NCBI GenBank assembly: GCA_963783375.1
Contig: CAWANH010000028.1
Location: forward strand, 1,408,001 to 1,472,000
Length of the DNA: 64,000 nt
Source: Candidatus Eiseniibacteriota bacterium
GTDB lineage: Bacteria > Eisenbacteria > RBG-16-71-46 > JABDJR01
Direction of reading: 5' to 3'
Part shown: positions 25,337 to 45,950 of the stretch, in pieces
Layout: each line of letters opens with the position of its first letter
Numbering within the stretch: position 1 is the first letter of the stretch
Program-made: the position numbers and the translations under genes
Notes under the pieces: model-generated
Databases searched by the model: none
What the model was told of the DNA's origin: nothing
Seen by the model: only the letters and a program-made list of their open reading frames with translations

Positions 25337-26059
25337 CCAGACCTCCTCGAATCAACGCGATCTTGGGATCGCAACCCCGAGAGTGCGGAACCGCCAAGAA
25401 TTTATCATATCAAAGATGCGCAGGGGCACGATTGGAGACGTTCGAGCCTCGCGGGTCCGGATACCGAGATCTCTTCGGGCGGTCAAGACCGGGGCGATTG
25501 AGCCCAATTCCCTCCGGGGATGGCGCACCGGCGGGTTCCCGTCCAGAAGGGCCTCACTCCCGGCAATTCCGCGACTCCGGAGCTGCCAAGTTACTGGCCA
25601 GCCCCGAGTTCAGGCCCTATGGGAGCATCTTGAGGAGAGAGAGTATTTCCCAGACAGTTGGAATCCTGGCACCCGATCCTCAATCTCCAGACCTCCCGCC
25701 ATCAGCCGACCGAGCCAGGGGTACCCTCCAATCAGCTTCGGCTAGCGAGCCCGCTTTCCCCGTCAAGAAACTGTCGAGCTTCAAACTGCTCCCTGGGCCA
25801 GCCTCGGCCCCGGTGAACGCCATGATGACGTGGAGGGTCGAAGACCGGATGCACGATCAGAATGCGAATCCCGTTGCGAAGCAGCCTTCCTCTGACTCGT
25901 CTTACACCAACTCCATGCGACGAGGTCGGCCGTCTCGGTGAGGCCATCGTGCGATTGTGCCGATGCCTGCGGAGACCGCGGGAGCGACGAACCTCGACCC
26001 CCTGAAGATCGACTCTCGCCCCTGTACGAGATGCAAGCGCCGGATCGGTTGCGACGATG

Positions 26060-26454
26060 ACCACCGTCCGGAGTGGGCCAATCAGAGGCTCTCGGAACTC
26101 CAGCACGAGAAGGCGGCACTGGAGCCCCAGGAGCCGGCCTTGAAGAAGCCGCCGAAACTAACGGCCGGAGACGTGACCGAGTACACCCGGAACCTGTCCG
26201 GGCTGCTGGGCCACGCTAACCAACGGGAAAGAAAGGAGTTGGTGGGTATGATCGTGGAGAAAATCAAACTGGCCCCGGAGCGTCGGGAGGTAGAACTCGT
26301 CTACCGCGCTCCGGAGCCAGTCATGAATAGGTTGGTAGCGGGGGTGCGTTACGGGGCCCGACAGAGGAATCTCGGAGGCGAATTCGAGGTCATCGAGCTG
26401 GCGTTCGAGCCCCGGGGGAACACGTTGGTCCTGGTGGGGGCGGCCGGCGGGTAG
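26060..26454 (+). pseudogene. C-terminal remnant of a large serine recombinase
   Basis: Coiled coil, ERKELVGMIVEKIKL...VELVY, then LVAGV encoded by a copy of the tRNA 3' end; no catalytic domain upstream. Confidence 0.6.
26332..26345 (+). repeat. 14-bp direct repeat of the tRNA-fMet 3' end (putative att core)
   Basis: TTGGTAGCGGGGGT here and at 40507-40520. Confidence 0.75.
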
Positions 26455-26478
26455 GAGAGCGGGTTCGCCGGGACGTCC

Positions 26479-26507
26479 TTGACGTCTCGCGATGGCCCGG
26501 ATAGAAT
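26479..26507 (+). promoter_or_regulatory. Sigma-70 promoter of the abiE operon
   Basis: TTGACG-N17-TAGAAT. Confidence 0.7.
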
Positions 26508-26544
26508 CACCAGCAGATTCGCATAACCGCTGGTATTTCTATTC

Positions 26545-27171
26545 ATGAAGACAGAACATAACTCAAATCAGGACAGCACGTTTGCCAGGGCGGTGGCCGT
26601 CTTCCGCGACCACGGAGGGGTGCTCAGGACAATGGAGGCGGTCCGGCTCGGCGTCCACCCGCGAACGCTCTATGCCATGCGGGATGCCGGGGTGCTGGAG
26701 CAACTCGGGCGGGGGCTCTACCGGCTGGCGAACCTGCCGCCACTCGGGAACCCCGACCTGGTGGCGGTAGGCCTCCGCGTTCCGGAGGGGGTCCTCTGCC
26801 TGATCTCGGCGCTGGCGGTTCACGAGATCACGACCCAGATCCCTCATGAGGTCCATCTGGCTCTCAAGCGTGGCGCCGAACCACCACGGCTGGATCACCC
26901 CCCGGTTCGGGTGTTCTGGTTCTCGGGAAAGGCTTTCACGGAAGGGATCGAAACCCACGAGCTGGACGGGATCGAAATCCGCGTCTACGGGGCGGCGAAG
27001 ACCGTGGCGGACTGCTTCAAGTACAGAAACAAGCTCGGACTGGATGTGGCCCTCGAGGCGCTGGGACTCTACCTGCGAGAGAAGCACGGACCCCCCGACG
27101 ATCTCGTGCACTTCGCTCGCGTATGTCGTGTCGAAAAGGTGATGCGCCCCTACATCGAGGCCCTCCTGTGA
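26545..27171 (+). CDS. abiEi: Type IV TA antitoxin, AbiEi family
   Basis: N-terminal wHTH (RGLYRL), CLISALAVHEITTQIP, KTVADCFKYRNKLG. Confidence 0.88.
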   Translation: MKTEHNSNQDSTFARAVAVFRDHGGVLRTMEAVRLGVHPRTLYAMRDAGVLEQLGRGLYRLANLPPLGNPDLVAVGLRVPEGVLCLISALAVHEITTQIPHEVHLALKRGAEPPRLDHPPVRVFWFSGKAFTEGIETHELDGIEIRVYGAAKTVADCFKYRNKLGLDVALEALGLYLREKHGPPDDLVHFARVCRVEKVMRPYIEALL

Positions 27172-28088
27172 AGCGCCGGCAGGTGGGAAACGTGGCGGTC
27201 TCCGTTCATCAGCGCCTGCTCAACGAGGCGCGTGCGTCCGGCCGGCCATTCAATGAGCTACTCCAGTACTTCGCCATGGAGCGATTCCTATTCCGGCTGT
27301 CCGCGTCGCCATACGCCGAGAGGTTTGTTCTGAAGGGGGCGCTCATGCTCGCGACGTGGGAGATCTCCCTCACGCGTCCCACCAAGGACATCGACCTACT
27401 GGGCAACGTGACCAACGACGTCGATCACATCGTGGCGATCGTGAAGGAAGTGTGCCGTCAAGAGGTCACGCCGGACGGCCTGGACTTCGACCCGGAGAGG
27501 GTGCGTGGGGAGCAAATCGCCGAGGAAGCCGAGTACAACGGGGTGCGTGTCCGCTTTCAGGGGCGCCTCGGTACGGCGCGGATTTCCATGCAGATCGACA
27601 TAGGCTTTGGTGACGCCGTGGTACCAGGCCCGGTGGCGGTCGAGTATCCCACGATGCTGGACCTTCCAGCTCCACGGATTCGCGCCTACACACAAGAGAG
27701 CGTGATCGCTGAGAAGTTCCACACCATGGTTCGCCGGGGACTCCTCAACAGCCGAATGAGGGATTTCTTCGATGTCTGGGCCCTATCGCGGCAGTTCGAC
27801 TTCGATGGGCCGGTTCTGGCGGCAGCAATCCGCGAGACGTTCTCGCGGCGAGGGCAAGGCTTTGCTCCACACCCCGTGGCGCTGACAAAGGAGTTCGCGG
27901 AGGATAGGTCGAAGGTGGCGCAGTGGCGGGGTCTTCTACGGAAGAGCCGCCTGCAGGGCGCGCCGGGCGAGCTGGCGGATGTGGTTGACGCCATTGCCGT
28001 CTTCCTCGGCCCGGTTGCAGAGGCCCTCTATGAGGATCGGGAGTTCCGAGGCCGTTGGGATGCGCCCGGTCCCTGGACGTTGGCGTGA
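27168..28088 (+). CDS. abiEii: Type IV TA nucleotidyltransferase toxin, AbiEii family
   Basis: FVLKGA, RPTKDIDL, AEKFH, SRMRDFFD; GTGA overlap with the antitoxin. Confidence 0.9.
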   Translation: MKRRQVGNVAVSVHQRLLNEARASGRPFNELLQYFAMERFLFRLSASPYAERFVLKGALMLATWEISLTRPTKDIDLLGNVTNDVDHIVAIVKEVCRQEVTPDGLDFDPERVRGEQIAEEAEYNGVRVRFQGRLGTARISMQIDIGFGDAVVPGPVAVEYPTMLDLPAPRIRAYTQESVIAEKFHTMVRRGLLNSRMRDFFDVWALSRQFDFDGPVLAAAIRETFSRRGQGFAPHPVALTKEFAEDRSKVAQWRGLLRKSRLQGAPGELADVVDAIAVFLGPVAEALYEDREFRGRWDAPGPWTLA

Positions 28089-28251
28089 AGTCCGGTTCTC
28101 CCGCGGGAAGCGGGCGCCCATCTTCCCGGACGGGGGGACGACGCCGATGGGGTCATCCGGGGCGCAGAGCCAGCCCAGAAGGCAGCGGTTCCTTTCGGGC
28201 CCAGTTTCTCGCGGGTGCCGGCGACCTCGGCTTTCGTGGCGTGGGAGAGCC

Positions 28252-28833
28252 GTGAAACAAGTTCCCATCCGTACCACCGGTGCCGGGAAACGCCCTGCCG
28301 AACTGGTCTCCCTGCGTGAATACGCCCGCCGGCGGAGCATCTCCCACGTCGCGGTGATCCGTGCCATCCGCTCGGGCCGGATCTCGACCGTTGGCGGGAA
28401 GATCGACCCGAAAGTGGCCGACCGGGAATGGCGGGAGAACACCGACCCGTCGAAACCCCGAAGCCGGATCACCGGCAGGCCGAATCACCGGCGACGACCC
28501 GGGGAACCGTCCACCCCGATGAACCTCGACGGCTACGGGGCCAGCGACACCACAGCGGCCGGTTACGCGAGGGCCCGCGCGGCGCGCGAGCTTTACCGGG
28601 CCCAGCTCCCGAAACTCGAGCTCGATTGCCGACGCGGAATCCTCGTCCGGGCCGACGAGGTCCGGCTCGGCGCCTTCAACGTGGCCCGGAAGGCCCGGGA
28701 CCAGCTGATCGCTCTCCCGGGCCGTATGTCGGCCCGTATCGCGGCGGCCGGGGACCCGGTCGAGATTCGGCGGATCCTCAAGGAGGAAATCGAGCGGATC
28801 TGCCGGGAGATCGTGGACACAGGACCGCCGTGA
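28252..28833 (+). CDS. Phage terminase small subunit-like (Nu1 type) orphan
   Basis: SLREYARRR.ISHVAV..AI..GRI HTH; YARARAARE.Y.A; RKARDQLIALPGR. Confidence 0.7.
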   Translation: MKQVPIRTTGAGKRPAELVSLREYARRRSISHVAVIRAIRSGRISTVGGKIDPKVADREWRENTDPSKPRSRITGRPNHRRRPGEPSTPMNLDGYGASDTTAAGYARARAARELYRAQLPKLELDCRRGILVRADEVRLGAFNVARKARDQLIALPGRMSARIAAAGDPVEIRRILKEEIERICREIVDTGPP

Positions 28834-34046: not shown

Positions 34047-34871
34047 CTAGCGAGGAGCAGCGAGAACCGCTTCAAACCCGGATGGGGTCCGGTAGGTCAC
34101 GGCGAGGAAGGTCCGCCCGGACGTTTCGCTGCCGACGGGCGTTCGAATCTGGAACCGGTCGCCCTCGGCTGGCAGTTCGCCCCAGGAAAGCGTTAACGCT
34201 GGCAACCTGAGGATCGCCAGCCGACAGTCCGAGGCCTCAGGAGGGATGGATGCCTGATAGGTGCCGCCTCCCTCGGTCCGGAACGAGACCGTGCGTCCGC
34301 CCTGGGTGGTAGCGGGCGGGACCGGCTCCCCCTCGACGACGATTCCCCCCTCAGTCCATCGGAGTCTCTGGCGGAAGGCCAAGAGAGCGGCTTCTCGGAA
34401 GTCTTGAGGTGGTCGTGTCTGGGTCGCCTTGGACCCACGAACCGCGTCCACTTGGAACTGCTCACCGTAGTAGGGCGTATCCGCCACGAAACTAAGGGCT
34501 TCCCCGGATGGGTGCCGGACGCCACGAGCCAGGCCAATGGCGACGGCCAGCACGGCCGCCAGGCCCATCAGGAGTTGGATCGTCCGGGAGGGCCTGCGCT
34601 TGCGCCGCCGTTTGGGCACCACGGGGCGCGGCAGGGTCTGGAACTTCAGGGTGCCGCGCGCGATGGCGGCCAGGCCGACAAGCTCCTCCCGGAGCTCTCC
34701 GGATTGCGCGAGGAGCTGTGTGATGCGCTCCCGGTCCTCGGGAGTTACCGTTCCGTCAAGATAGTCCTCCAAGAGCTCGAGATCCACCTCCTCCGGGGAC
34801 GACCGGAGGGCGAGGGATCGGAGGGCCGCTGAGAGTTCGGTGTCCGTCATGTGCTTCGCTTCACGCGCCAT
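34047..34871 (-). CDS. Putative membrane anti-sigma factor
   Basis: LLEDYLDG...ERITQLL anti-sigma-like N-terminus, basic patch, one TM, extracytoplasmic domain; follows the ECF gene. Confidence 0.7.
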   Translation of the reverse strand: MAREAKHMTDTELSAALRSLALRSSPEEVDLELLEDYLDGTVTPEDRERITQLLAQSGELREELVGLAAIARGTLKFQTLPRPVVPKRRRKRRPSRTIQLLMGLAAVLAVAIGLARGVRHPSGEALSFVADTPYYGEQFQVDAVRGSKATQTRPPQDFREAALLAFRQRLRWTEGGIVVEGEPVPPATTQGGRTVSFRTEGGGTYQASIPPEASDCRLAILRLPALTLSWGELPAEGDRFQIRTPVGSETSGRTFLAVTYRTPSGFEAVLAAPR

Positions 34872-34883
34872 CGGTCATACCCT

Positions 34884-35525
34884 CTACCGTCCGAGTTCCA
34901 CGGAGATCCCCGTCCGCTCCAGTTGCTCGGTGAGCTTCCTCCGGCAATAGCGAACCTGGTCCGAGAGCTTCTTGTTCTCACTTGGCCCGGCTCCCAGGAG
35001 AATCTGAAGCTCTTGGGGTGTGTAGCCCTCGGCCGCGGCCTTGAGGAGGAGCTGACACTGTGGCGAGAGATGCTCCAAGGCCACCTCGACCTGCCGGAGG
35101 AGCTCCGCGAGTTCGGCTTGAACCTCGGGATCTGGCTCGGAGCTCTCAAGGGCCTCCAAGAGCTCACTTAGATCTTCGTGCCGGCGGTGCTGCTCGTATT
35201 TCATGCAATCCCGCGTGCGATTGCGAAGCACCGTCCAAAACCAGGAGGCGAAGGCCCGCCCCTTGTTTTCGTAGCTCCGCAACCGCCGGAAGTCATCCTC
35301 TCGAAGATCGAACAGAAGTTTTTGAAAGAGGTCAGCTTGATCCTCTTCGGACAGAGAACGAAAGATGGCTGGAGGTCGGAGCTGAACCAGCCGCCACGCA
35401 TAGACATAAAGCTCTTCCCACGCCTTCTCGGGATTGGCGTCGAGCCAGTCCATGAAGGACGGCCAAGGATCAGCGAGGATGGAAAAGGCGACAGGGTCCG
35501 TCCGGCCTGTCTCGACCTGAGACAT
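34884..35525 (-). CDS. ECF-type sigma-70 factor
   Basis: AWEELY...ADLFQ...FASWFWTVLRNRTRD (region 2); ALEHLSPQCQLLL...GYTPQEL (region 4). Confidence 0.85.
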   Translation of the reverse strand: MSQVETGRTDPVAFSILADPWPSFMDWLDANPEKAWEELYVYAWRLVQLRPPAIFRSLSEEDQADLFQKLLFDLREDDFRRLRSYENKGRAFASWFWTVLRNRTRDCMKYEQHRRHEDLSELLEALESSEPDPEVQAELAELLRQVEVALEHLSPQCQLLLKAAAEGYTPQELQILLGAGPSENKKLSDQVRYCRRKLTEQLERTGISVELGR

Positions 35526-35607
35526 GCGCCAGACTGTAGTGACACTCGGCACCTCACTGCAATGCACAATGCTGAGCCTCGCCTGTTTCCCCCATCGAGA
35601 TAACGTT

Positions 35608-36627
35608 TCAGGCGGCGGATTTCGGAATAGAAACCGCCAAATGTGCTGCTTTGAGAGAGTTCCAGGGGCAGCCCAAGTCCTCCGCCTGCCCCGTGGCCAC
35701 CCCCTGTAGCCACGGGGCCAATCTACCGGGATCGAGGACAAGGGTTCCGTCGGGGTTGATCCGGCCGACCCGGTTCCGGGAGTCGGTAAGGGCGACCGTG
35801 CACTTGTTGAGGTCTCCGTTCGCCCGGATGACCCAGGATGTGGCCATGGCCGCGTAGCAGATTGGAGGCGGTGGTGGGGCGGCATAGAGCCCAAGTTCCT
35901 CTGCTCTGTGCCGCAAGACCGCGATCGTCTCGTGCCCGTTGTGCCCGTCTAGTACGGGCAAGATCGGATCGTTCACTCCCCCGAGTCGCTCCAACGGCCG
36001 GATGAAAAAGGAGAACCGTGCGTCGTGCGCGAACGCCTGGGCACACTCCGTGAGGAGCTCTGGCAAGCGTTCGGCATTGGCCCGGGTGACATGGATCCGG
36101 ACGATCACAGAGAAGGGCAAGCGCTGGTCCTTTAGCGCGACGAGGCTCTCCCAGACTTGGGCGAACGTCCCCCTGCCGTTGGGGCGCTTCCTCACCGCAT
36201 CATGGTCGGGCTCAACCCCATCGAGGGTGATCTGGTAGTGCATGACACCGAGCCGAATGAGCTCCTCGGCGGTTCCGGGGGAGAGAAGGTCGCCGTTTGT
36301 GGTCATGTCCGAATCGACTTGGACCGCGGGATGCCGAGTGCGCAAATCTTGGACGTGGGCCATGATCTCACGCACGACGTCAAGGGCGACGAGCGGTTCC
36401 CCACCGAACCAGGACAGATCGAGCCGGCAGAGGTCGGGCACGCGAACATCGAGCAACCGTTTGATCCCCTGCACCACGGGCGGAGGCATGCGGGACAGCC
36501 GGAAGTCCTCGTAGCAGTAGTGGCAGCGGAAGTTACAGCGCTCGGTCGAAAAGAGGACGAGATGGAGCCGTCGGGACGAGAGGGCCTTCCCGTACCCCGA
36601 AGCTCCGCTCTGCTTGGTGGGTCTCAC
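35608..36627 (-). CDS. Radical SAM peptide-maturase-type enzyme with short C-terminal Cys domain, no RRE
   Basis: TERCNFRCHYCYE, WFGGEPL, TTNG, QITLDG, C-terminal CYAA...KCTV...CP; GTG start inferred. Confidence 0.9.
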   Translation of the reverse strand: MRPTKQSGASGYGKALSSRRLHLVLFSTERCNFRCHYCYEDFRLSRMPPPVVQGIKRLLDVRVPDLCRLDLSWFGGEPLVALDVVREIMAHVQDLRTRHPAVQVDSDMTTNGDLLSPGTAEELIRLGVMHYQITLDGVEPDHDAVRKRPNGRGTFAQVWESLVALKDQRLPFSVIVRIHVTRANAERLPELLTECAQAFAHDARFSFFIRPLERLGGVNDPILPVLDGHNGHETIAVLRHRAEELGLYAAPPPPPICYAAMATSWVIRANGDLNKCTVALTDSRNRVGRINPDGTLVLDPGRLAPWLQGVATGQAEDLGCPWNSLKAAHLAVSIPKSAA

Positions 36628-36635
36628 TTGGCGCG

Positions 36636-36839
36636 TCAGCACTTGTAGTTCGGAAGGATCGGCGGCCAGTCGTCTCCGTTGGGCTCCTGTAACGATGTGG
36701 TAAGCGTGGACACCACGCGGCCATGCGCGTCGAATTGGAGTTCGTGGCGGACAGGCATCTGGGCGTGCGCGGGCCGAGTTCCGAGGAGAAGGGTGACAAG
36801 CATGGCGCCTTGGAGCGTATACGTCGCAGATCGTTCCAC
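36636..36839 (-). CDS. Putative RiPP precursor peptide (67 aa)
   Basis: GGAGG RBS and GTG; fills the gap between the CHAT and rSAM genes; signal-like N-terminus, FDAHGRVV, C-terminal DDWPPILPNYKC. Confidence 0.7.
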   Translation of the reverse strand: MERSATYTLQGAMLVTLLLGTRPAHAQMPVRHELQFDAHGRVVSTLTTSLQEPNGDDWPPILPNYKC

Positions 36840-36884
36840 AGCAGACCTCCGGTCGAAACGGACACCGCCCCACGGCGGAGGTCG

Positions 36885-39857
36885 CTAGTCTCCGACCGCG
36901 AGGAAACAGGCCCAGTAGTAGGGATGAGTTGGTCTACCCGTAGAACGCCTGATCTGGAGAGTTTCGGACGAGGTATAGAAAGCCGCAACACTTGCCGAGC
37001 CGTCACGGTCCAGGAAGTGATCGTAGAAGCGCAGGCACCAGTCCCGACTCGGGTGATCTCCGATGTCCCAGATGGAAAGGATCGCGCTGTGTGCACCGGC
37101 GAGACGGAACGCGCGGTAAAGGCCAGCCACGCGCTCGCCCGGGAGCGCCGTTCCCTCGGATGACCGACAGCTAGAGAGGAAGACCAGCTCGACCGAGGAG
37201 AAGTCCTCCAAGGCGATCTCCCGTTCGCCCCAGACTCCGTCAAAGCCGCTCGAGTCAGCTAGCGGCCTGACTAGTCGCAAGCCGGCGCACGGCTCTCCGG
37301 TGAGCGGATCGGTCCAGTCGACGCCGTGGGCCGCAAGGTGCACAACGCGGGAGCCCGGGATGCGGCGAGGAAGGACACTCTCCCGCGCGGACGTCCCGGT
37401 GAGCAATGTCACTGGTTCACCCGGTCGGCGCTTCTTCCAAAGGGTAACGACTTGCTCCGCCTCATCGAGCGAGGCGGGGAGCTCAGCCGGGGCTCCTGAC
37501 CCCCATGCGGAGTAGTCAACACCACCGACGGCCAGAAGCCCCTTCCCGGTGGCCTCGCTCGCGGGCGAGATGAGCTCCCGCTCGCTCTCGGCGAGCCGGA
37601 AGCTTCCGAGCTCTTCCACGAGGTACGAGGTACGACCACGGGGGAGGGCAAGGACATTCACGTTCCACAGCGGCCCCGTCGGGATCAGCACGAGATCTTT
37701 GGGGAGGTTGCCGCCGAAGATGGGGTCCAACAACAGGTGGCGGAGGGCGGCGCCGAGGGATCGGTACGCCGCTTCTGCCCCGTCGGGGTCCAAGATGAGT
37801 TCCTCGGGGGCTTGCTCCATGAGGGTCTGTTGGCTGGTGACGAGGGTGTCAATCCGGCTGGCGGCCCCCAGATCCTGGAAGCGGACGTCCTTCTCAGGCT
37901 CCATGAGAAAGGCTCCGTAGTGAGGGGCGTTGCCTTTGCCGTACTGGACGTAGGCGATGAGCGTTGTCTCCGGGGGGAGCCCTTTGCGGAGGGCCTGAGT
38001 ATCCAGGGTCGGACGAGTTGGGGTGATCGGCCGGGAGGCAGCCAAGCGTTCTTCGAACCGCGCGATTTCGCCGTCCAGCCGCTGAAGCAACTTGGGAGAG
38101 ACGGGTGCGAGGCCCTCGACCGGGTCCATGGTGAGCAGGTTGGCCAGGTGCCGCTTGAGAGTACGGAGCGTGTCCGGTTCCGCTCCTAGCTCTCGTCGGC
38201 GCGTGAGTTCGTCGAGAAGTGAGCCGCGCGAGCCGATGGCGAGCGTCCATGCCGCCTCGACGAAGCGACTTCCCTTGCATGCGTCGTCGCTCAGGAGAGA
38301 GAGGAGGAGATCCAGGGAGGAGACCTCCTCCTTCCAGTAGGCGCTGATCTGCTCGGAAGTCATCGCCTGGAGGTTGAGCTGGTACCGATGGAGAGAGGCG
38401 GAGGCGGCATCATAGGCGAGCTCCCAGGCCGCGCGCGGATGACCTTGGGCGGAGCGAAGCTCACCCGCGGTTTCGTCCACTTTGGACCGAACGATGTGGT
38501 CCCGTGGTAGGGCCTTGACGGAGCTCAGAGCCTGAGCCGCCCAGCGCTCAGCCTCGGGCAGCCGGCCCCGGGCGGATAGGAACCGCACGTAGTCGGCGGC
38601 CAGGGAGCCAAACAAGGCCGGCTCTTTGGAGGGGTCCGCGTTCGCAAGACCCTTCTGGAAGAGCGAATCGGCACGGTTGGTACGACCGAGGCGCACGTCC
38701 AAGCGTGCGAGACGGGCCAGGGTGGGAACGGTCAAGGGGGAGTTGGCTCCGTAGATTCCCGTGAAGTATTTGAGGCTCGCCCGCAGCGTGTCGACCCCAG
38801 CCTGAAAGTGACCCTCCCTCTCCAGGATGTATGCCTGGATGGAGTAGTTCCGATTTCTCGTGCGCTCATCGGCGCCGTAGCGCTTGGCCACCTGCCGAAA
38901 CCGCTCCTCGAGCCGTTTGGTACCCGGGAGGTCTCCCAGGCGGCTTGTGATCTCTGCCGCCGTGACCGTTGTCCCCGCCGCGAGGGCCTTCTCGAGGTCC
39001 GGATGCCGCTCGATCGTCTCACTCACCTCGGTGATGACTTTGAGGGCGTCCCGGAAGTCTCCCTCCGCGGCGAGGCAAACGGCATATCCCCATCCGGTCT
39101 GGCAGAACAAGTGCGGCAAGCGGTTGCGGCGTGCCTCATAGGCCTGACGATAGAGATCCTCTGCCTCCGGCAAGCGACCCATTCCATGGAGGATCACGGC
39201 ATAGTCGTTACTCGTCCAGGCGAGATCGAGATCTTGCGGGGAAAGGACACGCTTCCTCACCTCGTAGACATGGGCGATGTGCTGGAGAGCCTCGGCGCGT
39301 CGCTTGAAGTGATCCAGGGTCTGTGCAAGCCCATGCTCGGCCCACAGGGTCTCGCGGTCGTCCGGTCCCAGGGTCTTGACGAGGATCTGCCAGGATTTGA
39401 GGAAGTCCCGATGGGCGGCTTCGAAGTTCCCAGTTGACAGATTCCAGCGAGCGTACCGCTCCAGGGTTATGTCGTAGCCGGCGGAGGAGTCGCCGGCGAC
39501 CGCGGCCCAGTCCGTCAGGGCGCGAGAGAGGTACTTGCCGGCCTCCTCAGTGCTGTCACCCCGGGCCAGGGCCCAGCCGTAGTCTCGGTGGAAGCGGGCG
39601 GAGAGGGAATCGGGTGGGCCCGAGGAGTCTAAACACCCGAGAAGCCGAGTGTAGGCAATGAGCGCCTCGGGGAAACGGCGGTTGGCGAGCAGGCTGTCCG
39701 CCACCGTAAGTTCTTGACGTATAACGGATTTGCTGCATGGCCACGACACCTCCTGGCAGAGACCGGGTACAGAGGTGATGCAGGGGGACAGGGCCAAGGC
39801 CACCACGGCGATGCAGCGGGCTGGCCACGTGGCTGGAGAGGCTGTTTTGGGGTTCAC
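36885..39857 (-). CDS. TPR + CHAT (caspase-like) domain protein, probably exported
   Basis: Signal-like N-terminus, many TPRs, VVHLAAHG and VFLSSCRS dyad, HPYYWACF end. Confidence 0.92.
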   Translation of the reverse strand: MNPKTASPATWPARCIAVVALALSPCITSVPGLCQEVSWPCSKSVIRQELTVADSLLANRRFPEALIAYTRLLGCLDSSGPPDSLSARFHRDYGWALARGDSTEEAGKYLSRALTDWAAVAGDSSAGYDITLERYARWNLSTGNFEAAHRDFLKSWQILVKTLGPDDRETLWAEHGLAQTLDHFKRRAEALQHIAHVYEVRKRVLSPQDLDLAWTSNDYAVILHGMGRLPEAEDLYRQAYEARRNRLPHLFCQTGWGYAVCLAAEGDFRDALKVITEVSETIERHPDLEKALAAGTTVTAAEITSRLGDLPGTKRLEERFRQVAKRYGADERTRNRNYSIQAYILEREGHFQAGVDTLRASLKYFTGIYGANSPLTVPTLARLARLDVRLGRTNRADSLFQKGLANADPSKEPALFGSLAADYVRFLSARGRLPEAERWAAQALSSVKALPRDHIVRSKVDETAGELRSAQGHPRAAWELAYDAASASLHRYQLNLQAMTSEQISAYWKEEVSSLDLLLSLLSDDACKGSRFVEAAWTLAIGSRGSLLDELTRRRELGAEPDTLRTLKRHLANLLTMDPVEGLAPVSPKLLQRLDGEIARFEERLAASRPITPTRPTLDTQALRKGLPPETTLIAYVQYGKGNAPHYGAFLMEPEKDVRFQDLGAASRIDTLVTSQQTLMEQAPEELILDPDGAEAAYRSLGAALRHLLLDPIFGGNLPKDLVLIPTGPLWNVNVLALPRGRTSYLVEELGSFRLAESERELISPASEATGKGLLAVGGVDYSAWGSGAPAELPASLDEAEQVVTLWKKRRPGEPVTLLTGTSARESVLPRRIPGSRVVHLAAHGVDWTDPLTGEPCAGLRLVRPLADSSGFDGVWGEREIALEDFSSVELVFLSSCRSSEGTALPGERVAGLYRAFRLAGAHSAILSIWDIGDHPSRDWCLRFYDHFLDRDGSASVAAFYTSSETLQIRRSTGRPTHPYYWACFLAVGD

Positions 39858-40466
39858 AGGATCCGGTTGTGAAAAGATTCCGAAAATGGTCCCTCTCAGT
39901 CGTTACAAAAGAGGTGGGCCGGTCCAGCTCGGTAGTCACTCGCCGAGCGGTGGGGCCACGGCCCAGAGAGGATATCACGTGGTGCCGGCCCCCAGTCGAT
40001 GGTGGAGAAACGGGGGAAACTAGGCTTCTTCACGACCGTGGGGGAAGTTCTAGGTTTCTTCACTGCGGGGGCTGGCGCCATCTCCCGCAATCGGATCCTG
40101 CCCGGGAAATGGAAGCGGCTCTGTGACGCGTCGAGGGGGGAGTCATTGCCTAAGGAAGGCCAGAAGAGCGTGGCAAGCAAAGGGGTCAGGCCGGAGTACG
40201 GCACCCGATCAACGGGCGAACCCGAAAACACCCGGGTGCTAACAAATCCCGTGCGGCGCATGACCATAGGGAGCCCGCTCTTGATCGTTACTCGGACGGG
40301 CTCCTAGGTCAGAGAAGGACGCCAAGCCCCCTATTCGGCCACTTCTCTGGGGGCATGTAACTCCGCCAGTCTACTGCCAGCGGAACAGCAGGCGCAGTTG
40401 CGAACACGGACAGTTTGGAGACTTGAGTCCCGAGGCTTACCCTCGCACTCGCGCCCCAGAGAATAC

Positions 40467-40500: not shown

Positions 40501-40507
40501 CTAAAAT

Positions 40508-40584
<77 letters not shown>

Positions 40585-41316: not shown

Positions 41317-43002
<1,686 letters not shown>

Positions 43003-43116
43003 CTAGTTTGGCCCGCGGTCCGCGGACGGCGGGGGGGAGCCCCCGAACCCGCCTCGTTCCTGCAACCCGGCCGGCCTGGAGTCCGTAAATCCAGGCGAGA
43101 GCGGAGGACGCGCGAG

Positions 43117-43713
43117 TTGACGCCCGAGGTGAACGAAGATCGGGAGCTGGTCCTCCGGTGCCTGAAGAACGATCAGGCCGCCTTCGAGCGGCTCCTGGAG
43201 AAATACCGGCGTCCGGTCTACGGGATCGTCCGCCGGATGGTCCGTACCGACGAAGACGCCCAGGACCTGGCCCAGGAAGCGTTCATTCGGGCATTCAAGA
43301 ACCTGAAGCAGTTCGACCCGGACCGGAGGTTTTCGAGTTGGCTCTTTCGTATCGCCAACAACCTGTGCATCGATCACTATCGGCGGCGGAAGCTCAGCAC
43401 GGTGCCGATGGTGCGATCGCCGGACGGGGAGAGCGAGGAGACGTGGGAGTTCCCCGACGACTCGCCCGACCCCGCGGAAGCCTTTTCGGATCGCGAGCGG
43501 AGCCGGCGGCTTCTGGCCGCGGTGGAATCGCTGCCCCCGACCTACCGGGCGGTGATCCTGCTCCGCCATCAACAGGGTCTGGCCTACGAGGAGATCGCGG
43601 AGACCCTCGACGCTCCGCTGGGCACGATCAAGGCCCGTATCCATCGGGCCCACCGGTTGCTCAAGGAGAAGCTCGTGCGACAGGGACTGGACTGGCTCCC
43701 CGAGGAGCACTGA
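43117..43713 (+). CDS. ECF sigma factor (SigW-like)
   Basis: DAQDLAQEAF, FSSWLFRIANN, YEEIAETL..PLGTIKARIHRA. Confidence 0.92.
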   Translation: MTPEVNEDRELVLRCLKNDQAAFERLLEKYRRPVYGIVRRMVRTDEDAQDLAQEAFIRAFKNLKQFDPDRRFSSWLFRIANNLCIDHYRRRKLSTVPMVRSPDGESEETWEFPDDSPDPAEAFSDRERSRRLLAAVESLPPTYRAVILLRHQQGLAYEEIAETLDAPLGTIKARIHRAHRLLKEKLVRQGLDWLPEEH

Positions 43714-43720
43714 GGCGGTC

Positions 43721-44356
43721 ATGAACCACGACATCCACGAAACCCATCTTCCGCCCCGGATCCTGGAGCGGTACGTGGACGGCGATCTCGCCGCCGGGCC
43801 GCTGGCCCGGGCGGAGTCGCACCTGGCCGCCTGCGCCGCCTGCCGCCGGGAGACCGGCCGCTTCCGCGCCCTCTTCGCCGATCTCGACCGCCTTCCCATC
43901 CCCGAGCCGCCGCTCGGTTTCGACGTCCGCATCCTGAACGCGGTGATCCGGCGTCCCAGCGAGGAGGCCATCCTCCTCCGCCTGGCCGGCCGGGCCTACG
44001 CGGTGCTCGCCGCCGTTCTCTTCGCCCTGGCCGCGGGCATCTTCCTGGTCGAGGGCCCCGCTCCCTTCGAGAACGCCTTCGCTTCCGCGGTGGCCAGCGG
44101 AGTCAACCGCGGGATCGAGGCCGTCCGGTTCATCGGGGTGAGCTTCCTCGATCTCATGAAAACCGCGCTCCATCTCATCACCCTGGCCGACGCGGCCGGC
44201 GCCCTCGGCCGCGGCCTCGAAGCCGCCGCCACCTCGCTGGCCCCCCAGGTGGTTCTTCTCACGGTGCTGACCCTGTCCCTGGCGACCCTGGTCCTGGTCT
44301 GGGCCCTGTCGCCCGCCCGCGAAAGGGGTGTTCCCCATGTCTCCCTCTCTCTCTAG
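43721..44356 (+). CDS. zf-HC2 anti-sigma factor
   Basis: HLAACAAC motif plus TM segments. Confidence 0.85.
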   Translation: MNHDIHETHLPPRILERYVDGDLAAGPLARAESHLAACAACRRETGRFRALFADLDRLPIPEPPLGFDVRILNAVIRRPSEEAILLRLAGRAYAVLAAVLFALAAGIFLVEGPAPFENAFASAVASGVNRGIEAVRFIGVSFLDLMKTALHLITLADAAGALGRGLEAAATSLAPQVVLLTVLTLSLATLVLVWALSPARERGVPHVSLSL

Positions 44357-45950
44357 GCTCCACCGGATCCGCGCGGCCCGGGCGCTTCTCATCGGAGGCG
44401 CGCTCCTGATCGCTCCGATCTGGGTATTGGGGGCGGCCGCCCAGGGCACCTCGGGGACCGGTGCGGACAGCGCCGAGGCCTCGGCGCCCAAGCACGAGGG
44501 CACCCTCAAGCGGATCCAGTTCCAGGTCGACACCGGCGACTCCTCGCCCACCCGCATCAACATCGACCTGAACCAGGGACGGGTCACCAAGGCCGCCGAC
44601 TACGTCCGGTTCGGCGAGAGCATCCACGTGAAGCCGGACGAGCACATCGCCGGCGACGTGGTCTCGATCGGCGGGAACGTCACCGTCGAGGGAGCGGTGA
44701 GCGGCGATTGCGTGGCGGTGGGGGGGCGGATCGAGATGACCCCCGGGGCCACCGTGGCCGGGAACGTGGTCTCGGTGGGGGGGAGCGTCACCCTCGACGA
44801 CTCCACCGAAGTGGGCGAGGACGCGGTGAGCGTGTGGGGGAGCCTCGACGTGGCCCCCACCGCCAAGGTCCACGGGGAGCAGGTGGAGGTGAGCGGCCTG
44901 GGGCTGAACTTCCCCTTCGCCGCCATGACGGGAGCGGGGCAGCACGGGTTCGGCCACGACGTCTGGCGGTTCCTCCGTCGGCTCATCTGGGTGCTGGTCC
45001 TGGTCGGGCTCGGCCTTCTGGCCTTCCAGATCTTTCCCGGCCGCATGCGCCGGCTCTCGGATACCGCGGGGGAGCGCGGTCTGGTCGCGTTCCTGGCCGG
45101 CTTCGCCGGGTGGATCCTCTGGCTTCCCGCTTTCCTGATTCTCTGCGTCACCATCATCGGGATCCCGGTGGCCATCCTGCTCCTATTCCTCACCCCGCTG
45201 GTCACCCTGCTTGGCTACATCGCGGTGGCCGAATCGGCGGGACGCCGGATCTCGCACCGCTTCGGAGGCGCGGTCCCGGGCTCGGCCAAGGCGGTCTTCC
45301 TGGGGGTGCTGGGGCTGGAGGGGGCGCTCCTGGTGGCCCGGCTCCTGGCGGTTTTCGGCTCCATCTTCAGCTTCATCGGCTGGATCCTGGCCATGGTCGG
45401 CTACTGCGTGATCTTCATCGCGTTGACCATGGGTTTCGGGGCGTTCCTGATGAGCCGCTTCCGCGCGCCGGCCACCGAACCGCTGAACGCGATCCCGCCG
45501 CCCGCGTCTCCGCCGCCGGAGGGGCCGGGCGCGCCGCTGGTTTCTCCCACGCCGCCGACCCCTCCCGTCGCGCCGGCTTCGCCGCCGCCGCCACCCGGGC
45601 CCTCGGCTCATTCCGCGCCGCCTTCCTCGCCGGGGGCGGGGACCCGTCCCCCGGACCCGCGCCCGGTGGACCCCCAGAAGGCCCAGGCCCTCCTGGAGGA
45701 ACTCCTCCAGCTGGACCGGGAGTTCGCCGCCCAGGAAGGGAAGTTCATGGTGGCGGCCCAGCCCGCGCGGCAGGCCATGGCCCATGCGCGGATCGCGTCG
45801 GAGGGCTTCAGCCGGAGCGGCAGCTTCCGAGCCGACGACATGGGCCTCTTGGAGTCGGCGAGGAACATGCTCCGCTCCGGGCAGTCGGTCATCATGCTGG
45901 CCGATCCCGAGGACCCGAGGTACTTCGTCCTCTGGAAGCGGATGTCGTGA
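44337..45950 (+). CDS. Membrane protein with bactofilin-like beta-helix, multi-TM region, Pro linker and extra C-terminal domain
   Basis: GDVVSIGGNVTVEGAVSGD repeats; TIIGIP TM block. Confidence 0.75.
   Translation: MSPSLSRLHRIRAARALLIGGALLIAPIWVLGAAAQGTSGTGADSAEASAPKHEGTLKRIQFQVDTGDSSPTRINIDLNQGRVTKAADYVRFGESIHVKPDEHIAGDVVSIGGNVTVEGAVSGDCVAVGGRIEMTPGATVAGNVVSVGGSVTLDDSTEVGEDAVSVWGSLDVAPTAKVHGEQVEVSGLGLNFPFAAMTGAGQHGFGHDVWRFLRRLIWVLVLVGLGLLAFQIFPGRMRRLSDTAGERGLVAFLAGFAGWILWLPAFLILCVTIIGIPVAILLLFLTPLVTLLGYIAVAESAGRRISHRFGGAVPGSAKAVFLGVLGLEGALLVARLLAVFGSIFSFIGWILAMVGYCVIFIALTMGFGAFLMSRFRAPATEPLNAIPPPASPPPEGPGAPLVSPTPPTPPVAPASPPPPPGPSAHSAPPSSPGAGTRPPDPRPVDPQKAQALLEELLQLDREFAAQEGKFMVAAQPARQAMAHARIASEGFSRSGSFRADDMGLLESARNMLRSGQSVIMLADPEDPRYFVLWKRMS

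Follow-up and report, generated by a model that had tools for sequence, protein, structure and literature searches.

Two described systems are particularly close to the locus presented here. In Myxococcus xanthus, DdvA/DdvS comprises a sigma factor of the extracytoplasmic function (ECF) class and a transmembrane anti-sigma factor with a periplasmic TPR-CHAT region, which has been proposed as the site-1 protease acting before RseP (PMC11506125). In the Csx29/Csx30/CASP-sigma system, a TPR-CHAT protease cuts the C-terminal part of an anti-sigma factor and frees an ECF-like sigma factor (PMC10028731, bioRxiv 2022.08.17.504292). We present a computational analysis of a five-gene cluster in a 64,000-nucleotide stretch of Candidatus Eiseniibacteriota bacterium (contig CAWANH010000028.1, positions 1,408,001 to 1,472,000), hereafter the window, which encodes a TPR-CHAT protease, a precursor-like peptide, a radical S-adenosylmethionine (SAM) enzyme, an ECF sigma factor and an anti-sigma-like protein. 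A first-pass annotation of the sequence had set the cluster beside type III-E Csx29/Csx30; the parallel stood as regards a TPR-CHAT protein that cuts, or here is predicted to cut, an anti-sigma factor to free a sigma factor, while DdvA/DdvS proved the closer counterpart. The five genes are as follows.

36885 to 39857, minus strand: TPR-CHAT protease, 990 aa (PF12770 and TPR_12, dyad, hydropathy)
36636 to 36839, minus strand: precursor-like peptide, 67 aa (family leader motif, C-terminal N64-Y-K-C67)
35608 to 36642, minus strand: radical SAM enzyme, 344 aa (PF04055, CxxxCxxC and three C-terminal Cys)
34884 to 35525, minus strand: ECF sigma factor, 213 aa (TIGR02937)
34047 to 34871, minus strand: anti-sigma-like protein, 274 aa (one membrane helix, fold matches)

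All five open reading frames (ORFs) lie on the minus strand with intergenic gaps, from CHAT to anti-sigma, of 45, -7, 82 and 12 bp, bearing out the co-oriented genes with gaps under 90 bp described earlier. Our preferred interpretation, which is tentative and falls somewhat short of probable, is a split, DdvA/DdvS-like trans-envelope switch in which the CHAT protease would cut the anti-sigma factor under the control of a cyclized peptide. An Asn64-Cys67 thioether ring would be introduced into the peptide by the radical SAM enzyme, and the closed peptide would be the gating partner of the protease, most likely its activator. The exported TPR-CHAT protease would clip the membrane anti-sigma factor at R145/G146, intramembrane proteolysis would follow as in truncated DdvA (PMC11506125), and the freed ECF sigma factor would transcribe its targets, possibly its own operon through a motif shared with genome G001. 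Taken part by part, thioether formation in the peptide is likely, its regiochemistry by analogy; cleavage at R145 with ensuing intramembrane proteolysis is probable on the DdvA model; and binding and gating of the protease by the peptide is marginally favored, activation being slightly likelier than inhibition.

Linkage of the peptide and its enzyme to the protease

The exact five-gene order was also found in G001, three further genomes (G005, G008 and G014) and a metagenome contig (L105), and two contigs (L098 and L083) agree with it as far as they reach. Across the phylum, 20 matches to the radical SAM enzyme, which include kin and are not independent, occurred in 18 of 206 genomes, and 18 of the 20 adjoin a TPR-CHAT gene; of the other two, one encodes a 450-aa enzyme (G071) and one lies at a contig end (G040). 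With a chance expectation of CHAT adjacency of about 1% by our own estimate (few TPR-CHATs per genome of about 4 Mb), the association is far above chance. The five genes, for whose CHAT, radical SAM and ECF members the first-pass annotation had proposed a neighborhood search, form a recurrent unit. Among the matches listed from the wider collection, CHAT lies near the radical SAM gene at 26 of 158 loci whose enzyme scores at least 330 bits and at 13 of the 72 with both flanks of at least 4.5 kb. In a FastTree phylogeny of 161 rows, all 35 CHAT-linked enzymes group in a single branch of 53 rows (SH-like support 90, unstarred), which also holds 4 CHAT-free and 14 short-contig rows, and CHAT was found in 0 of the 108 remaining rows. 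Named records in the branch belong to Eiseniibacteriota, Acidobacteriota, Planctomycetota, Myxococcota, Omnitrophota and Armatimonadota. Two archaeal members (L040 and L028, the latter with a short flank) stand inside it without a nearby CHAT gene, and CHAT was seen at none of the 5 viral loci whose enzymes score as family members.

Such linkage bears on the reading of peptide and enzyme as output cargo, an ordinary pair for a ribosomally made and post-translationally modified peptide (RiPP), placed in an operon under sigma-factor control and physically unconnected with the protease. Loci outside the CHAT branch would suit it, as their gene content resembles that of ordinary RiPP clusters, often with ABC/HlyD exporters or S9 peptidases (the largest neighbor family, 33 of 132 loci listed), and so would the candidate ECF promoter at the operon head and the occurrence of the core without the pair. 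However, no exporter family was recurrent in the CHAT-linked loci scanned, and through rearrangement and duplication it is the protease, not the radical SAM enzyme, that the peptide accompanies. Where the order is shuffled to radical SAM, CHAT, peptide (L086, L087, L232, L237 and L293), the peptide stays behind the protease; L047 carries two protease-peptide pairs with a single radical SAM gene, and G186 has two such pairs away from its radical SAM gene, which is on another contig. The cargo explanation is rated unlikely.

CHAT-free members of the enzyme family (L007, L021, L032, L033, L066 and others) are widespread, occurring in Streptomyces, cyanobacteria, Pseudoalteromonas and Alphaproteobacteria, with N-x-x-C cores that are often repeated and no curated maturase model. 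Some CHAT-peptide-radical SAM loci stand beside a metallopeptidase-like family with weak M66/M10 likeness and stand-alone DUF4384 proteins (L010:2007-4226, L076:1546-3471, L128:2685-4400 and L148:1590-3758), and a subtilase occurs at L003.

The TPR-CHAT profile matches 119 of the 206 phylum genomes (a tally that includes G054), mostly without radical SAM or peptide; sigma factor, transducer and protease therefore form the core, to which the peptide/radical SAM pair was added, with more than one gain or loss. In a protease tree of 60 rows, likewise built with FastTree and carrying long-branch warnings, the peptide label changes 7 times against a shuffled mean of 20. Since the core exists without peptide or radical SAM, the peptide cannot be a universal trigger, and to that extent the earlier proposal that it triggers the system had to be narrowed. 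The window's own genome carries, at L240 (G000:C29:1519000-1524627), an ECF sigma factor, a kinase-TM-DUF4384 protein and a TPR-CHAT protease with no peptide or radical SAM gene, in which the R/G motifs of kinase and protease loop match. A CHAT-domain gene in three pieces (L242:7454-8582) lies in the same genome, and L241:5800-9120 holds a more distant TPR-CHAT.

The protease and the predicted Arg site of its transducers

The window protease matches CHAT PF12770 at 112 bits (cut-off 24) and TPR_12 at 100 bits, and its His/Cys dyad is intact as first noted, with His844 (37328-37326) and Cys897 (37169-37167) invariant across 25 aligned TPR-CHATs; by domain and dyad it is a predicted clan CD protease. 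Among PDB entries, the CHAT profile matches the DdvA structure 8rot best (E 8.8e-7). The N-terminus of the window protease is signal-like (hydropathy 2.36; signal peptides were called from hydropathy and by eye), and a hydrophobic N-terminal segment is present in nearly all the proteases.

The ECF sigma factor reaches 52.2 bits with TIGR02937 (cut-off 42.9) and 19 bits with NF041236 for CASP-sigma (cut-off 100). The anti-sigma structure model (mean predicted local distance difference test score, pLDDT, 70; predicted template modeling score 0.50) comprises a three-helix N-terminal domain, a membrane helix at 97-117 that agrees with the single transmembrane segment first reported, a low-confidence segment at 139-150 and a beta-sandwich C-terminal domain. 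Its top three fold matches are the weak ones to RsiW, MucA and RslA domains (Z 5.1, 4.8 and 4.3). The zinc motif HxxxCxxC is absent from the N-terminal domain, where zf-HC2 scores 17.5 bits, below its cut-off of 22.2. The C-terminal domain has weak Ig/FnIII fold matches (Z at most 3.8) and no detected homology with DUF4384 (hhalign probability 0.06), and the anti-sigma profile, run against PDB sequences, returned nothing below E 0.05.

34434 to 34439, minus strand: predicted cut site R145/G146 in the anti-sigma-like protein (Arg in 18 of 19 homologs)

Among 19 distinct full-length anti-sigmas, aligned after truncated rows, duplicates and one N-terminal-only match had been left out, 18 have Arg at position 145 and one has Lys, and the next residue is Gly in 15 and Ser in 4; the position ties as the most conserved periplasmic column at a median identity of 24%. 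In the window protein, R145 sits 28 residues past the membrane helix, in a segment with pLDDT below 50. The kinase-DUF4384 transducers likewise have an Arg in the C-terminal part (14 of 14 full-length proteins), with Gly next in 11. An R/G motif occurs in the loop after the catalytic His in 43 of 58 other proteases and in 1 of 9 of the anti-sigma type, and is absent from the window protease. Over the six residues that follow the Arg, kinase and cognate protease loop agree better than shuffled pairs do (13 pairs; p about 1e-4, ignoring kinship), with a permutation p of 0.002, also ignoring kinship, once two pairs are dropped. From the R/G motif of anti-sigmas and of unrelated kinase transducers, echoed in the protease loop, cleavage at Arg is predicted, and the CHAT protease likely cuts the anti-sigma factor after Arg145, much as HetF cleaves at R117/S118 (PMC9457339). 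The earlier idea that CHAT cleaves the anti-sigma factor thus acquires a specific predicted site. At L037, a single case, the sole Lys-type anti-sigma pairs with a protease in which the otherwise near-invariant Asp after the Trp is missing, and two peptides occur there.

In separase, D2151 binds the P1 Arg, and its counterpart in Csx29 is K670 (PMC9729208). A reading of D934 of the window protease as this Asp gained no support, the published mapping falling four residues on, at R938. With R938 at the S1-pocket position, Arg specificity rests on the substrate-side evidence, and in the alignment of 25 the invariant E799 and the near-invariant D934 are alternative candidates for the pocket acid.

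It could also be argued that the protease senses or scaffolds without cutting, and that the conserved Arg serves in binding, given that the window protease departs from family motifs near its dyad and that DdvA dyad mutants are silent (PMC11506125). The invariance of His and Cys in all 25 proteins and the covariation of the R/G motif between protease loop and transducer speak against such a role, which we regard as very improbable.

The peptide, its maturase and the proposed switch

The window peptide is preceded by a GGAGG ribosome site, its stop codon overlaps the radical SAM start, and it shares the leader motif LQFDAHGRVV with the family. Small ORFs 5' of the radical SAM genes have this leader motif and an N/D-x-x-C tail in common. 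The tail is present in 33 of 39 CHAT-linked peptides (picked by hand, with near-relatives and a few uncertain picks included; six lack it) and in 75 of 97 profile-detected precursors of CHAT-free loci, against 8% of 12,996 background ORFs. NxxcB forms an Asn-Cys beta-thioether and tolerates Asp (PMC9389541), and by analogy the tail suggests an Asn-Cys thioether; together with the leader motif it makes credible the initial view of the peptide as substrate of the radical SAM enzyme. A cyclophane at Trp58 was rejected because Trp is not conserved (9 of 39 peptides within the last 20 residues). A peptide homolog search gave near-identical copies only, and the ESM Atlas held no usable match for a relative's peptide.

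The enzyme matches radical SAM PF04055 at 64 bits and has CxxxCxxC, three conserved C-terminal Cys (259, 278 and 322, P0001 numbering) and no N-terminal extension; its family is large (293 matches), with members of about 340 aa. It reaches no curated NCBIfam maturase model, the best score being 113 against a cut-off of 525, and the NxxcB model is not among the 25 NCBIfam matches listed for it. With 66 bits for DynA (cut-off 450) and 41 for DarE (cut-off 650), it falls outside the cyclophane/dynobactin enzymes. The best PDB sequence match is 5wgg, which we take to be CteB or CteB-like. The maturase family thus lies outside curated models, and about 1,300 stored stretches of the genome collection are estimated to match its motifs.

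Residues 1-26 of the window peptide are signal-like (hydropathy 2.44, A-H-A site), so that signal-like N-termini on both protease and peptide, as the first-pass annotation had them, are upheld. Its proposal of an exported peptide holds for the window and does not generalize, as 8 of the 39 peptides, the window's included, have signal-like N-termini (a threshold flagged 12, four of which were discarded as not signal-like). Four of these are twin-arginine signals, in keeping with export after modification, and four are lipoprotein-like (L018, L086, L295 and L299). Signal-less peptides of L005, L008, L062, L085, L089 and L292 start with very Lys/Arg-rich stretches.

The protease might instead be the leader peptidase of the peptide, with sigma and anti-sigma factors just regulating a RiPP cluster. 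The tight protease-peptide linkage, the lack of another peptidase in the window cluster and the Arg41 of the window peptide agree with this. Yet Arg followed by Gly or Ser is found in 5 of 39 peptide tails, and 3 of 39 peptides have Asp-Asp ahead of the core. Transducers carry the conserved Arg site in peptide-less loci as well, and the caspase S1 positions of the protease have no Arg by alignment (PMC4626109). Leader processing is rated improbable, and the Asp-specific leader peptidase first offered as an alternative was rejected, the Asp-Asp being rare, the substrate-side motif being Arg and HetF cutting after Arg (PMC9457339).

Alternatively, the modified peptide may inhibit the protease in the manner of securin or PCi, or be tethered to it as a partner, and so hold it off until displaced or destroyed. 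In favor, there is one peptide per protease, duplicated together with it; the lipoprotein-like signals would tether the peptide rather than let it diffuse, many CHAT-linked peptides are long (100-170 aa), and PCi is a precedent of a small co-encoded inhibitor (bioRxiv 2023.06.23.546230). Conversely, many proteases of this family occur without a peptide, so that an inhibitor is not needed in general, and the infrequent R-G/S leaves the tails with no conserved Arg pseudo-substrate. This role is rated unlikely.

The split switch with a gating peptide remains our preferred interpretation, and a number of observations weigh against it. Whereas nearly all proteases have a hydrophobic N-terminus, 31 of 39 peptides carry no export signal, which leaves their meeting unexplained. 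At L018 the peptide accompanies the radical SAM enzyme, away from the protease, and the G001 radical SAM gene (L230:9223-10292) carries a frameshift, at a stretch of G, that breaks it in two, through assembly error or decay. A radical SAM or peptide-profile match was found at 0 of 20 high-scoring radical SAM-less protease loci (from 150 matches listed), with a weak profile that missed G001's own peptide; at L303 an ORF of 54 codons with a CPC end went unscored. The core occurs without the pair in anti-sigma form at L283, L284, L287 and L289 (4 of 7 further full-length anti-sigma loci) and in kinase form at L240, L301, L302, L305, L309 and L313, while 3 of the 7 full-length radical SAM-less anti-sigma loci have no CHAT gene in the 10-15 kb examined. 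The window protease is long-branched on the protease tree, and R938 is not the Asp expected from separase. Finally, in the available account of DdvA the dyad mutants have no phenotype and the trigger was not found (PMC11506125).

A broader and more speculative version, to which we give rather limited credence, would make the cyclized peptide a dedicated ligand of a periplasmic caspase-like receptor-protease that cuts a membrane anti-sigma factor at an Arg/Gly site, or a receptor kinase at the corresponding shared site in sister loci. The RiPP-gated family would then have been recruited repeatedly onto a widespread sigma/TPR-CHAT chassis, and signal-less peptides may act as damage signals on membrane breach or lysis.

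Genomic setting and comparison with known systems

39877 to 39906, minus strand: candidate ECF-type promoter GTAAC...TCGGAAT, 5' of the TPR-CHAT gene, common to the window and G001
26332 to 26345, no strand assigned: 14-bp sequence directly repeating the tRNA-Met 3' end, likely left island boundary
40508 to 40584, minus strand: tRNA-Met, right island boundary

The second copy of the 14-bp repeat lies at 40507-40520, at the tRNA-Met 3' end, and the pair fits the tRNA-linked island described at the outset. The intervening stretch of about 14 kb also carries AbiEi/AbiEii, a terminase small subunit and a transposase; AbiE is merely a neighbor of the five-gene cluster and lends no support to a defense role, and G001 carries the cluster amid different neighbors. 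An ORF at 25957-28833, which resembles a serine recombinase C-terminus (it has no family match), spans the 14-bp repeat and is followed by AbiEi/AbiEii and the terminase gene, possibly as tandem islands at tRNA-Met. Outside the island, a separate trio of ECF sigma, anti-sigma-like and membrane-protein genes lies at 42994-45950 on the plus strand. In keeping with the first description, no transporter was seen among the ORFs scanned, and the cluster showed neither a CBASS nor a CRISPR island. The promoter pattern was built from just two sequences (window and G001); looser patterns gave 9 and 5 genome matches with no clear regulon, and a sigma-70 promoter and terminator scan remained at chance level.

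A literature search, with most subscription journals outside its coverage, found no work joining CHAT with radical SAM or a precursor peptide. ECF54 likewise places an ECF sigma factor beside TPR-CHAT, with a 4Fe-4S protein close by and control proposed to be proteolytic, but, unlike the window locus, is described in the cited texts as actinobacterial only and without an anti-sigma factor, and they mention no peptide or radical SAM (PMC7826278, PMC8999054). SAVED-CHAT/PCaspase/PCi/PCk also brings a CHAT protease together with genes for a sigma factor, a kinase and a small inhibitor, and differs in being cytoplasmic, triggered by cyclic oligoadenylate and CRISPR-linked (bioRxiv 2023.06.23.546230). 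HetF/PatU3 shares a CHAT protease that cuts after Arg before a small residue; unlike the present system, it is a cell-division and heterocyst regulator, described in the cited text without sigma factor, anti-sigma factor or peptide (PMC9457339). The NxxC ranthipeptides (NxxcA/NxxcB; CteB, PapB) parallel the NYKC of the window in having an N-x-x-C core, Asp tolerated, beside a radical SAM enzyme (PMC9389541). In contrast to theirs, the 344-aa window enzyme is short, lacks an N-terminal extension, has three Cys near its C-terminus, stays below the NCBIfam maturase cut-offs, and belongs to a pair linked to a protease-sigma module.

Some Csx30 C-terminal domains are DUF4384, as in the kinase variant described here (PMC10028731, bioRxiv 2022.08.17.504292); unlike the window system, that of Csx29 is, according to these texts, cytoplasmic, triggered by RNA via Cas7-11 and cuts after Met or Leu. 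PADLOC gave no match for the protease, sigma or anti-sigma factor, and the genome was not searched for Cas7-11. With DdvA/DdvS the locus shares an ECF sigma factor paired with a single-pass anti-sigma factor. In contrast to DdvA, the TPR-CHAT is a separate exported protein, here and in all relatives, the anti-sigma domain has no CHCC zinc site, and a peptide and radical SAM enzyme are co-encoded. By analogy, then, the window system would work like DdvA/DdvS and Csx29/Csx30 while standing outside both by fusion, zinc site and Cas7-11 locus. What appears new, as judged from sequence, is the anti-sigma version with CHAT and a radical SAM peptide, and the predicted Arg cut site. Having protease and anti-sigma factor as separate proteins, with a candidate cut site and a candidate ligand, makes the questions of the DdvA trigger and site-1 protease testable with purified parts, and the comparison points to RiPP chemistry used as input to a caspase-like switch.

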